Origin: a phage
Assembly: GCA_012060505.1 (NCBI GenBank)
Contig: GCA_012060505.1_3027.1
Strand: one strand, 5' to 3'
DNA: 20,833 nt
Below the pieces are notes generated by a model. The model had not been told where the DNA came from, searched no databases, and saw only the letters and a list, made by a program, of their open reading frames with translations. A program made the position numbers and the translations under genes. Of the stretch, positions 2,892-6,433 are shown piece after piece (positions within the stretch are counted from its first letter, which is position 1; each line of letters opens with the position of its first letter).

Positions 2892-3178
2892 TAGAACCTC
2901 ATCTGAAAACCATGCGATTTAACATTCCCGCCGCCAATATCAGAAATATTAATTTCACTCGCAATTGAAGGGTCAATATCAATTTCACGATTGAGTTTAG
3001 TGATAGCTAAAGTATCACGCCCATTTACTGTACGGAATTCTAAAGGACAAACCACATCAACGTAATTTTTAATCGATTCACTGGTAGGCTGCAAATGAGC
3101 AGGAAGGTCTTTAGGTGCCTTTGAGAAAACCACTTCACAAAAATTTTTGCGGGTGTCAAAATAAGTAGTCATAAACAT
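2891..3178 (-). CDS. Hypothetical protein, 95 aa (position of T4 30.6)
   Basis: ORF track; ATG preceded by GAGGA Shine-Dalgarno. Confidence 0.55.
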   Translation of the reverse strand: MFMTTYFDTRKNFCEVVFSKAPKDLPAHLQPTSESIKNYVDVVCPLEFRTVNGRDTLAITKLNREIDIDPSIASEINISDIGGGNVKSHGFQMRF

Positions 3179-3194
3179 AATATTTTCCTCAGTA

Positions 3195-3210
3195 AGGGGC
3201 CGAAGCCCCT
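3195..3210 (-). other. Intercistronic GC hairpin with UUCG tetraloop between the 30.7- and 30.6-like ORFs
   Basis: Minus strand AGGGGC-ttcg-GCCCCT just upstream of the GAGGA Shine-Dalgarno; no U-tract in the sense direction, a T-run on the plus-strand side. Confidence 0.5.
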
Positions 3211-3219
3211 CATTTTATT

Positions 3220-3585
3220 TTAAATATCAAATTCGTTAAGAACTACATCAAAGATTGCTTCAAGATGCTCAGGTTTAGCTCTGTTACTCAGAATATGACG
3301 AATCCAAGTTTTAACCAAAAGCTTGCGATTATCACCATTCCAGCAAGGATGAGTCCCTAAATCGCGTTGACGAAAATCATCATCTAAAGCGATTTTAAAA
3401 TTTGAACCTTCCATTGTGATTGAAACCGTGATGCCATTTTCAAATCGCATATAAACGTAGTTAGGAGTCATATACTGTTCAATTTCGCATACTGATCCAT
3501 TTTGATGTTTCCAAAGGCAAATAGTATCAATAGAACCTGCAATACCATTAGAAACATATTTACGTTCAAAGTTGATGTAGTTCAT
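3220..3585 (-). CDS. Hypothetical protein, 121 aa (position of T4 30.7)
   Basis: ORF track; ATG preceded by GGAG; early-type promoter immediately upstream. Confidence 0.6.
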   Translation of the reverse strand: MNYINFERKYVSNGIAGSIDTICLWKHQNGSVCEIEQYMTPNYVYMRFENGITVSITMEGSNFKIALDDDFRQRDLGTHPCWNGDNRKLLVKTWIRHILSNRAKPEHLEAIFDVVLNEFDI

Positions 3586-4096: not shown

Positions 4097-4273
4097 TTAT
4101 GCTTTCTGCTTACCAAAACGAGAAGCATCATCTCGAAGAACCGCACGTGCTCGGCGCATGATCTTCTCAACAGTTTGATTGATACGAGAGTTCGACCCAC
4201 GCTTGTAACCAGCGCGTTTAGAATCACCAACTTTCTTTTCAACTGCTTTCTTTGCTTTAGCTTGTTTTGCCAT
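4097..4273 (-). CDS. Small highly basic protein (position of T4 30.9); alternative longer start at 4315
   Basis: ORF track 4097..4315; product from second in-frame ATG reads MAKQAKAKKAVEKK...; intrinsic terminator follows the stop. Confidence 0.55.
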   Translation of the reverse strand: MAKQAKAKKAVEKKVGDSKRAGYKRGSNSRINQTVEKIMRRARAVLRDDASRFGKQKA

Positions 4274-4518
4274 TATAAATTCTCTTTTAAATGAAAATGC
4301 AGGACTTATTGGCATTGCCTGCGCAAGCCCTCAAGGGGAACATAGGTTTTTGGGTATTTAACGACCAGGATAACCATAAACCCGTCATCATTCACATTCA
4401 AGAGGTACACCATAAAACTGCCGGGGTCTTAAAACTATAATGATTCGCAAATCATTAATCAGACAGTTCGATGGCTCCTCGATTTTAGCTCACACTAAGG
4501 CAGTGAATCTCCAATAAA

Positions 4519-4767
4519 TTACTTCAATGTTACCACAAAGTGACGAACTGCTTTTCGTGCAGCAGAAGCCAGAGGCTTAGCATACTTAAGTTCATCTTTT
4601 TCCTGAAGCTCAGCAGCTAATGCAGTTTGAGCAGGATTTAGATGTTTGAAATAACGCAGGATTTCAAGAGCTTCGGCTTCAACATCAATAGATGCGCCAT
4701 AGTTTTCGTGACCATTATTCCATGCGTTTCGTTGCAGTTCAAGAGCGTGTTGTAATTGTTTAATCAT
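4519..4767 (-). CDS. rIII: rIII lysis-inhibition accessory protein, 82 aa
   Basis: Size, sequence MIKQLQHALELQ... and position (after gene 31) match my recollection of T4 rIII. Confidence 0.8.
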   Translation of the reverse strand: MIKQLQHALELQRNAWNNGHENYGASIDVEAEALEILRYFKHLNPAQTALAAELQEKDELKYAKPLASAARKAVRHFVVTLK

Positions 4768-4906
4768 TTAAAAATTCTCGTTAGAGATTAAAACTCGGTA
4801 GTCACGTTCTTCTGAATTTCATCTTCTTTCGACAGATCTCTCAGTTGTAGACTACCACATAGAATTGTTCGGTTAACTTATTATTCCGACACCCAATTCA
4901 TATTAT

Positions 4907-4914
4907 TATTTATA
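4907..4914 (-). promoter_or_regulatory. T4 late promoter consensus TATAAATA upstream of rIII
   Basis: Exact TATAAATA on the minus strand in the 31-rIII intergenic region, about 140 nt before the rIII ATG. Only exact match I found; the 8-mer is expected a few times by chance in AT-rich sequence. Confidence 0.4.
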
Positions 4915-5250
4915 TCACTTATAAAGACACGGAATAGCTTTATAGTGACAGGTAACGAATTTTTGTTTAATTTCTTTTGGCTGCTTAAGACCCAGAGCTA
5001 CAAAAGGATGCGGAACATTTCGAATTTGACCAACTGGAAGAGAAGTCAAATCACCAACTTCGCAGAAACCTTCAGGAACATCAGGACCGACAGAGTGAAC
5101 TACACATAATTCAGGAACTTCACCTTGAACACGTTTACCGATAATAAGTCCTGATTCTGTAACTTCTTCATCACCGGCTTGTGCAGGTTCAGAAACTAAA
5201 ATAACATATTCACCGACAGCACGAATTGGTAGCTGTTGTACTTCAGACAT
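4915..5250 (-). CDS. 31: Gp31 co-chaperonin (GroES analogue), 111 aa
   Basis: [22 protein letters not shown]... matches recollected T4 gp31; AAGGAAA Shine-Dalgarno; MotA-type promoter upstream. Confidence 0.9.
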
Positions 5251-5615: not shown

Positions 5616-5852
5616 TTATTTACCTATTACAGTTTTAATATGAGTTGTTCCACGTTCTTTAAGGGTGGAAAGTAATTTTTGGCATTTTTCTAAATCAGAT
5701 TTCCAACTATATGGTCTATCAATACAAACCCATTCTGACTTATAATACTGCTTCCATTTAGAGAAAAAATATTTCTTATACTCTACAGCAAATGAAATAT
5801 TCTCATTAGAATAAGAACTAATTGCTGTGAGCTGTACCAAACGAAATTTCAT
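5616..5852 (-). CDS. Hypothetical protein, 78 aa (position of T4 31.2)
   Basis: ORF track; ATG start; TAATG overlap with cd stop. Confidence 0.55.
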   Translation of the reverse strand: MKFRLVQLTAISSYSNENISFAVEYKKYFFSKWKQYYKSEWVCIDRPYSWKSDLEKCQKLLSTLKERGTTHIKTVIGK

Positions 5853-6433
5853 TATTCACCACAGAATTCGTTGATATTTTCCCAGTTTAACTTATTCAAG
5901 TTTTTCTTAGGAACATTAAACACTTCAATACCTGCATTTCGCAGAATATCATCCCAGCCAGGTTTATTTTTATCGTATGTTTCACAATAAACTAGCTTTT
6001 TAATACCAGATTGAGCTATCGCTTTTGCGCAATCTGGACAAGGAGAAAGTGTTACATACATAGTAGCACCTTCAATAGAAGAACCATTTCGTGCAGCAAA
6101 CAAAATTGCATTTAGTTCAGCATGAATTTCATTTTTAGACGACCATTCAGAGTGAGCGCTACGATGTTCTTTCGCCAAGACAAAACGATCAGTTGAACCA
6201 AATGATACACATTCGGGTTTATGACCTTGGATAATAGTATGTTTAGGTTTATTCAGCAACCAACCTTGCTCGGCAGCATAATCACAGCAGTTCACACCAC
6301 CAGCAGGTGAACCATTATATCCGGTAGAAATAATACGTCCATTCTTTTCAATTACTGCTCCTACCTTCCAGGAGCAACATTTTGATTCTTGTGATACTAA
6401 ATATGCAATTTGAAGTACTGTACTCGCTTTCAT
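5852..6433 (-). CDS. cd: dCMP deaminase, 193 aa
   Basis: Zinc-binding deaminase signatures HAELNAI and SPCPDCAKAI; size and sequence match recollected T4 Cd. Confidence 0.9.
   Translation of the reverse strand: MKASTVLQIAYLVSQESKCCSWKVGAVIEKNGRIISTGYNGSPAGGVNCCDYAAEQGWLLNKPKHTIIQGHKPECVSFGSTDRFVLAKEHRSAHSEWSSKNEIHAELNAILFAARNGSSIEGATMYVTLSPCPDCAKAIAQSGIKKLVYCETYDKNKPGWDDILRNAGIEVFNVPKKNLNKLNWENINEFCGE

Follow-up and report, generated by a model that had tools for sequence, protein, structure and literature searches.

The spacer between rIII and 30.9 (positions 4274-4518) of a Tequatrovirus genome very probably encodes a structured functional RNA. This spacer lies in a stretch of phage DNA of 20,833 nucleotides (nt; GenBank assembly GCA_012060505.1, contig GCA_012060505.1_3027.1), referred to throughout as the window; it carries no annotated open reading frame (ORF) and its flanking genes are all on the minus strand. 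Comparative analysis reveals that the spacer is not junk or the remnant of a gene but a string of self-contained RNA structure modules, co-transcribed with rIII on the minus strand. The principal module, element B (4491-4391, minus strand), is a four-helix structured RNA of ~80-100 nt that occupies the rIII-proximal half of the spacer and hence the 3' untranslated region (UTR) of rIII. Element B is a selectively maintained RNA fold on the mRNA-sense strand, matches no catalogued RNA family, and has been swapped among four phage lineages that have only the host in common.

The first-pass annotation of this DNA, made from the sequence alone, had singled out the spacer as a gap among otherwise tightly packed genes and had suggested that it could hold a small RNA, a decayed gene or regulatory sequence. 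The gap is indeed exceptional, being the longest internal stretch of the window without a minus-strand, ATG-initiated ORF of at least 55 amino acids (aa) (203-245 nt, with a runner-up of 147 nt), and phage T4 has the same unannotated spacer of 244 nt (NC_000866 130541-130784). The relatively GC-rich patches described there amount to only a mild rise (GC content 0.396 vs 0.36 in the whole window). A small RNA or regulatory sequence is supported by two covarying structures, element B and the pseudoknot A1, together with a hairpin followed by a U-tract. Beyond the options considered at that stage, the spacer is built as a mosaic, its modules being exchangeable and one of them common to unrelated phage families.

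Structure and covariation of element B

Element B is a nested structure in which three stacked helices, P1 (4480-4477 paired with 4405-4402), P2 (4475-4471 with 4413-4409) and P3 (4467-4460 with 4423-4417), form a rod that is capped by the hairpin P4 (4456-4450 with 4445-4439, loop 4449-4446), all on the minus strand. Two features noticed separately in the first pass belong to this structure: the AATGATT-tgcg-AATCATT hairpin (4439-4456) is P4, and the GAGGAG, which is present at 4480-4475 of the minus strand, is the 5' strand of P1 and P2 and not a ribosome-binding site that lacks a properly spaced start codon. Across phage families, the helices to which both contribute have been maintained through compensatory substitutions.

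The fold was assessed on an alignment of 19 distinct copies of element B, with 500 column shuffles and alignments in which the 3' partners were slid by 1-3 columns as controls. The helical cells are paired in 98.4% of cases and both sides have changed in 14 of the 24 pairs, compared with only 0-2 pairs in the slid controls; neither the observed covariation score nor the paired fraction was reached by any of the 500 shuffles, a control that ignores phylogeny. Moreover, the same helices were recovered by RNAalifold without guidance. The helices vary freely in sequence while pairing holds, as is best seen in P4, which is rewritten to AGCAAUC/GGUUGUU in Kuravirus and to AUCGAUU/AAUCGGU in Mosigvirus, and the nucleotides of internal loops and junctions stay invariant. 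The unpaired segments that are invariant, or nearly so, across lineages are GGAGC, CGA, CUGAUUA, UAUAGUUUUA, UUUU and GUGUACC; between Kuravirus and T4, P4 is wholly different and CUGAUUA, UAUAGUUUUA and GUGUACC are identical. One G-U pair is invariant and wobbles make up ~10% of the paired cells, which indicates that the fold belongs to the gene-sense (minus) strand only.

Folding of the single spacer sequence as a whole gives nothing unusual on either strand (z = -1.2 and -0.9), such that the structures are revealed by comparative analysis only; a single Kuravirus sequence folds to the same shape as element B with z = -3.7. A covariance model built from the alignment (effective sequence number 1.34) finds one copy in the window, at 4491-4391 with 117 bits, scores all known copies from T4-like phages, Vequintavirinae and Kuravirus at 89-121 bits, and also detects degenerate copies in the T4-like loci VIPECOOM02 and L356.

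Comparison among T-even genomes, which the first-pass annotation had recommended, shows that the structures of both B and A1 covary and gives no sign of the poor conservation that had been held to count against a function. Between Tequatrovirus and the sampled Mosigvirus, Dhakavirus and Gaprivervirus, the modules B, A1 and A2 are 83-97% identical, vs 74-93% for the flanking genes rIII, 30.9 and gp31; conservation of the modules between T4-like genera thus equals or exceeds that of the surrounding genes.

Distribution and mobility of element B

A sensitive DNA search with the spacer alone retrieved 768 phage records, including the unrelated myovirus phi92 at 98.8% identity, and a partial match at 80% identity was obtained in the rV5-like phage W70; the full distribution of element B emerged from iterating the searches with the W70 copy and then with a Kuravirus copy. 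The element is found 3' of rIII in hundreds of T4-like phages of the genera Tequatrovirus, Mosigvirus, Dhakavirus and Gaprivervirus; directly upstream of tRNA-Met in the tRNA cluster of four Vequintavirinae (W70, A73, A5-4 and LTH01); between a TerS-like gene and terL, in a spacer of 161 nt, in ~28 Kuraviruses; and inside the tRNA cluster, on the tRNA strand, in phages of the phi92/SD2 type. Throughout, its orientation is that of the neighboring genes and each genome carries a single copy. The copy of W70 differs from that of T4 by two 2-nt insertions inside the element.

The genes around element B are unrelated, with a TerS-like protein as the neighbor in Kuravirus and a Cys-rich protein of 57 aa in Vequintavirinae, and a tie to a 30.9-like or rIII-like protein in other lineages was accordingly considered and rejected. 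The three principal settings also differ in what follows the element. In Kuravirus, a strong hairpin with a U-tract follows it at a distance of 7-10 nt and directly precedes the terL ribosome-binding site; in phage SU10 this is an 18-bp hairpin and U-tract between B and that site (909-958 of the SU10 locus), and a terminator-type hairpin ahead of the essential terL raises the question of how this gene is transcribed. In Vequintavirinae element B is followed by a tRNA and no terminator; in W70 it lies 14 nt upstream of the tRNA 5' end, and a sigma-70-like promoter is present ~130 nt upstream of the element.

Searches outside these lineages returned little. Element B had no match in 5,426 Escherichia coli genomes or in 72,556 PLSDB plasmids, and is thus known only from virulent coliphages. 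When metagenome and genome contigs were scanned twice with loose patterns, the matches listed were almost all due to chance, and the covariance model run on this output recovered, among the matches listed, just two Kuravirus contigs and no bacterial genome; a stricter scan of IMG/VR yielded only T4-like phages and one phi92-like contig. Within the T4-like phages the element is missing from those of the PSGBLB0006/HY01 type and is internally deleted in VIPECOOM02 and L356.

The copy in phi92 is a recent T4-derived insert. It is a circular permutation of the T4 order, in which the spacer, up to and including the first four bases of 30.9 (ATGG), is joined to rIII codons ~56-82 and the rIII stop codon, and this block entered phi92 at the 5' end of tRNA-Gln by way of an 8-nt microhomology, TGGAGATT. 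Because of this insertion, phi92 gp113, which bears the name "putative rIII", is chimeric and fuses the ATGG start of 30.9 to the ~27 final codons of rIII (2910-3257 of the phi92 locus; likewise in SD2). The arrangement is what the integration of a small circle would be expected to produce. A precedent exists in the PeSL cassettes of T4-type phages, short intergenic noncoding modules which mediate modular shuffling and consist of a strong sigma-70-like early promoter and a terminator stem-loop (PMC2839356, PMC4122927), and whose excision from T4-type genomes as mini-circles, apparently packaged into capsids, has been shown (PMC2839356). Such a mini-circle seems to have given rise to the permuted T4 block in phi92, and the spacer modules, like PeSL cassettes, sit at boundaries of gain, loss or replacement between related phages. 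Unlike PeSL cassettes, the spacer contains no promoter-like site, although a hairpin with a U-tract is present; furthermore, the loops of B and A1, which are multi-helix or pseudoknotted structures, are invariant, and B is not confined to a single phage family. Taken as a whole, element B moves as a unit, adjoins quite different genes, is dispensable, and is autonomous.

Further modules and the gene neighborhood

The spacer of T4-like phages is a mosaic of an optional module mod0, element B, optional inserts C and D, the pseudoknot A1, the small hairpin H0, and a final hairpin with a U-tract. Among 25 T4-like loci from IMG/VR these modules are combined and ordered differently; in L342 and L355, for example, A1 comes straight after the rIII stop codon. 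In T4 coordinates, element B corresponds to 130658-130758 and A1 to ~130607-130652.

A1 (4386-4341, minus strand) is an H-type pseudoknot, both helices of which covary. Stem S1 pairs GACGGG (4386-4381) with CCUGGUC (4369-4363) in the register GAC-GGG/CCU-G-GUC, and stem S2 pairs the hairpin-loop segment UAUGG (4378-4374) with CCUAUG (4346-4341); the intervening loop L3 (4362-4347) is conserved and A-rich (GUUAAAUACCCAAAAA, with the A-rich loop also given as GUUAAAUAUCCAAAAC). In an alignment of 25 A1 sequences the covariation score is 0.452, vs 0.166 for column shuffles, none of 500 of which reach it, and at most 0.125 for slid controls; both sides have changed in four of the six pairs of S1 and four of the five pairs of S2, with, for instance, AU in 13 and UA in 12 sequences at pair 15-37, and GC in nine, UA in nine and GU in four at pair 23-58. 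The paired fraction of 83.5% is a lower bound, given that T4-type S2 requires one bulged U and that MAFFT misplaces a few rows, those of T4 type being imperfect. A1 also follows element B in the Vequintavirinae A5-4 and LTH01. In topology, with two stems and an A-rich L3, A1 resembles the T4 gene 32 operator and aptamers of the preQ1 and SAM-II type, and its L3 could lie in the groove of S1, as in other H-type pseudoknots with an A-rich L3; it differs in its own sequence and size, in the lack of an adjacent ribosome-binding or slippery site, and in a position within the spacer that varies among phages. A superficial likeness to the guanidine-III riboswitch (GACGAGG) was dismissed, as the nucleotides in question lie in a covarying stem.

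Upstream of element B, just past the rIII stop codon, mod0 (4486-4512, minus strand) is a hairpin with the stem CACU (4505-4502)/AGUG (4496-4493) and the loop GCCUU. The module is optional: variants in P896, L342, L345 and L352 hold the 4-bp stem via wobble changes, and phages of the WG01/HX01 type are without it. The mod0 sequence AUUCACUGCCUUAGUGUGAGCUAAAAU matches, by eye, 18-19 of 28 nt of the type I-F CRISPR repeat, and the variants in other T4-like phages resemble the 3' handle of that repeat (GCAGCUAGAAA). A role as an RNA anti-CRISPR was rejected, given that the CUGCC/GGCAG stem bound by Cas6f would carry two mismatches in five pairs. Because the Cas6f hairpin is not preserved and the variants keep a different 4-bp stem, the resemblance is probably due to chance.

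Downstream of A1, H0 (4328-4338, minus strand) is a hairpin of the form CCC(C)-UUGA-GGG within a recurring motif, GUACCCUUCGAGGGCUUG, which reappears at module boundaries in many T4-like spacers, with variants such as CCCU-UCG-AGGG; H0 may be a recombination joint. H2 (4289-4322, minus strand), directly upstream of the 30.9 ribosome-binding site, pairs GCAGG (4322-4318) with CCUGC (4303-4299) across a 14-nt loop and is followed by AUUUUCAUUU (4298-4289). The loop exceeds 8 nt, which is why H2 was not flagged by the terminator scan. A compensatory variant, AACUGG/CCAGUU, occupies the homologous place in L356 and L360, and other T4-like phages have, at an equal distance from the 30.9 start codon, unrelated but always stable hairpins with a U-rich tract. 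A terminator or attenuator would be expected to show such a pattern, and so would a 5' stabilizer for 30.9.

Two further inserts are found in relatives. Module C (UACUAUCAUGCGUCAGAAAAGUGUUAUCUGUGUAAGUCUUGGUGGUAU), which spans 44 nt, is inserted between B and A1 in phages of the T6, HX01 and WG01 type, and a related piece occurs in L344 and L358. Module D, a ~145-nt element (ACGGCAAGUGCAUGC...GCUAACGGUGUGCAACAGAUAAGAG) in the rIII-30.9 spacer of other T4-like phages, including Yersinia phage fPS-2 (minus strand, ~830-985 of the locus) and L342-L361 (upstream of position 901), is predicted by RNAalifold to form 43 pairs, 20 of them with compensatory changes, and is present at 87-100% identity in 403 phage records, among them a 249-kb Enterobacter phage and T4-like phages of Klebsiella, Enterobacter, Edwardsiella and Serratia.

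Neither the spacer nor the related modules compared with Rfam matched a known RNA family. The Rfam 15 covariance models gave nothing within 4274-4518 at E values up to 10, which covers the hammerhead, twister, pistol, hatchet and HDV-like ribozymes, and nothing at E values up to 1 for modules B, A1, D and E of eight related loci. ARAGORN detects no tRNA in the window, and the best local alignments of the spacer to the eight T4 tRNAs and the phi92 tRNA-Gln are 6-8 nt long. The notion of a broken or giant tRNA, suggested by the TGGAGATT shared with the phi92 tRNA-Gln and a possible UGGAGAU/AUUUUCA pairing, was therefore rejected, there being no likeness to any T4 tRNA and mod0 being absent from many relatives. 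A search of 4274-4518 on both strands found no promoter-like site, and neither the scan nor inspection by eye gave a convincing sigma-70, MotA-box or late promoter within the spacer. A literature search found no description of the spacer, its transcripts or its motifs, the candidates of one structured-RNA survey (PMC10690425) not having been compared one by one.

The segment 4097-4767 is 100% identical to Shigella phage SfPhi01 and ~99% identical to T4. In the direction of transcription on the minus strand, cd (5852-6433) is followed by 31.2 and 31.1, gp31 (4915-5250), the upstream cistron rIII (4519-4767), the spacer, 30.9 (4097-4273), a strong terminator 3' of 30.9 (4093-4072), and 30.8. The 147-nt spacer between gp31 and rIII (4768-4914) contains, just past the gp31 stop codon and upstream of rIII, the T4 late-promoter consensus TATAAATA (~4913-4906, minus strand), which would drive late transcription across rIII and the rIII-30.9 spacer. 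The translation start region of 30.9 (4271-4286, minus strand) comprises AAGAG (4286-4282) and the AUG (4273-4271); homology among 30.9 relatives begins at this AUG, 5' of which the sequence diverges, and so the 58-aa version of 30.9 is favored over a 72-aa ORF. Some records nonetheless lengthen 30.9 to that 72-aa ORF, which starts at 4315 and overlaps the H2 hairpin. The 58-aa product is very basic and belongs to phrog_1427 (function unknown); the name "1,4-alpha-glucan (glycogen) branching enzyme, GH-13-type" given in many GenBank records is impossible for a protein of such size. Across hundreds of Tequatrovirus records the annotation of the spacer is absent or inconsistent, with depositors calling variously a 49-aa plus-strand ORF, a 35-aa ORF labeled "protein rIII", or nothing.

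Two observations concern the wider setting. Positions 1-931 of the window hold no minus-strand, ATG-initiated ORF of at least 55 aa, probably because of a gene cut by the window edge or located on the plus strand. The "Pseudomonas phage" records vB_PSGBLB0006 (PV654520.1) and PsgM02F (OR584013.1) are T4-type genomes with gene order and sequence near-identical to those of coliphage Tequatroviruses, and their host labels look doubtful.

Possible functions of element B

We tentatively favor the view that element B is an autonomous, factor-binding, trans-acting accessory noncoding RNA (ncRNA), while regarding this as somewhat short of probable. Under such a scheme, B would be an RNA "gene cassette" whose invariant junction forms a putative specific binding site; its source would be either the 3' portion of a transcript or a tRNA-type precursor, and it would act not by controlling the adjacent gene but by binding or sequestering a factor that is present in every one of these E. 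coli infections, be it a small ligand or a protein or RNA of the host. A1 and the related modules of other T4-like phages would be further cassettes of the same kind. A trans-acting ncRNA is favored because the neighboring genes are unrelated and the nucleotides of junctions and loops are invariant. Moreover, each of the three contexts suits the production of an RNA: the rIII 3' UTR that ends in a hairpin and U-tract, the terS 3' region with its 18-bp hairpin and U-tract, and, in Vequintavirinae, a tRNA operon in which B lies downstream of a sigma-70-like promoter. The latter setting recalls T4 species 1 and 2 (rnaC and rnaD), phage ncRNAs of 120-140 nt and unknown function that derive from a polycistronic tRNA-type transcript. 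Element B differs from them in having another location in T4 and no similarity in sequence or structure: the covariance model scores at best 7.5 bits (E = 1.7) in the T4 tRNA/rnaC/rnaD region, where blast finds only chance words of 9-12 nt.

Several considerations weigh against this preference. To our knowledge, the classical work on T4-infected cells reported only tRNAs and species 1 and 2 as small stable RNAs; in that case, B would not be a stable RNA of high abundance. The position of B upstream of a terminator-type hairpin at a cistron boundary in two of the three lineages suits a role in cis equally well. Furthermore, all copies come from enterobacterial phages and are at least ~70% identical, with an accordingly small effective sequence number, and part of the loop invariance could stem from recent transfer.

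The principal alternative, which we consider possible but doubtful, is that element B acts in cis on RNA polymerase or the nascent transcript, by put-type antitermination or attenuation, and thereby sets the rIII:30.9 and terS:terL ratios. The HK022 put RNA acts on host RNA polymerase without a dedicated phage protein, is gene-oriented and lies upstream of terminators, and B is likewise co-oriented with genes at cistron boundaries and upstream of terminator-type hairpins, including H2 and the terminator at 4093-4072 in T4-like phages. All phages that bear B use the E. coli RNA polymerase, a common partner that would explain loops invariant across phage families. The strongest support comes from Kuravirus, given the close spacing of B to the strong hairpin and U-tract ahead of the essential terL, and there the 3' strand of P1, CCCUU, can pair alternatively with AGGG at the foot of that terminator; such pairing, however, would spare the complete inner terminator. 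In T4-like phages, B and H2 are 100-300 nt apart, with variable modules in between, the same hairpin and genes are retained where B is lacking, and the genes downstream of B share nothing. As to the promoter and terminators between which a put-like element should lie, terminator-type hairpins are present downstream of B in Kuravirus and T4-like phages and a promoter-like site upstream in W70 alone, and in Vequintavirinae B is followed by a tRNA and no terminator. Finally, put consists of two adjacent hairpins near a promoter, whereas B forms one branched rod and is unrelated to put in sequence. A role in processing or stability, as a host RNase site, a decay barrier or a new self-cleaving ribozyme that separates cistrons or matures tRNAs, seems to us unlikely. 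The element is intercistronic in all lineages, lies close to a tRNA 5' end in W70, and in its compactness and conserved junction nucleotides is like small ribozymes, and ribozymes are known to occur next to phage tRNAs; against this, it has no counterpart among the Rfam ribozymes and leaders at the threshold given above, and a simple decay barrier would need no invariant loops.

A ligand-sensing riboswitch that controls the downstream gene would be a very unlikely identity for B, despite an aptamer-like layout of covarying stems around an invariant core, the size (80-100 nt) and the detection by covariation in an intergenic location that it shares with riboswitch aptamers and orphan motifs such as those of a survey with ~10,000 unnamed candidates (PMC10690425). 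A platform-like terminator, followed by a ribosome-binding site, adjoins B only in Kuravirus, with no expression platform next to it in T4-like phages or Vequintavirinae; the genes downstream (30.9, terL and tRNA-Met) form no consistent class; and no Rfam aptamer matches. Most improbable of all is that the spacer has no RNA function and represents a decayed gene, a small protein gene, or a DNA recombination scar or site. ORFs of 25-49 aa do exist on both strands, some of them annotated, including the one pointed out in the first pass, MVYLLNVNDDGF... (4306-4413, minus strand, 35 aa), which is present and, as stated there, has no Shine-Dalgarno sequence, as is also true of the ORFs of 34 and 49 aa; short repeated motifs do recur at module boundaries, and the region clearly recombines. 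Yet the protein-family search recommended for detecting a pseudogene found no relatives in PHROG or Pfam for any of four spacer ORFs (including those of 35, 34 and 49 aa), and 1-nt indels break the frames between close relatives (GACGGG vs GACGAGG, CCTGGTCG vs CCTGTCG, A5 vs A4), as do the two 2-nt insertions that distinguish the W70 and T4 copies of B. On these grounds the small ORFs appear to be noncoding, and the decayed gene originally envisaged finds no support. Substitutions are compensatory in helices with no bias toward third codon positions, the G-U pairs are strand-specific, and the single copy per genome shows that B is not a repeat element.

With respect to the trans-acting ncRNA that we tentatively prefer for B, a broader and more doubtful hypothesis may be formulated, namely that the rIII-30.9 spacer is a cassette site for an unrecognized class of RNA-only accessory genes, comprising B, A1 and D (the last in ~400 T4-like phages of Klebsiella, Enterobacter and Escherichia). 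These unrelated modules, each with a fold of its own, would be reordered, gained and lost among T4-like phages and exchanged with Kuravirus, Vequintavirinae and phi92-like phages, and each could serve as an aptamer-like decoy or sponge for a host factor or immune signal, a form of RNA-based counter-defense, or as a portable modifier of host RNA polymerase.

T4 is among the most thoroughly annotated viruses, and yet its reference record shows this spacer as featureless; the covarying folds described here are unannotated functional elements, and many database records need correction with regard both to the ORFs called in the spacer and to the glycogen branching enzyme label of 30.9. Elements B and A1 are concrete, small targets in a tractable system. 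More generally, the present findings suggest that phages trade RNA modules in the same way as accessory protein genes. Should a host factor or RNA polymerase indeed be bound by element B, the latter would provide a new portable tool and represent a new layer of phage-host interaction.

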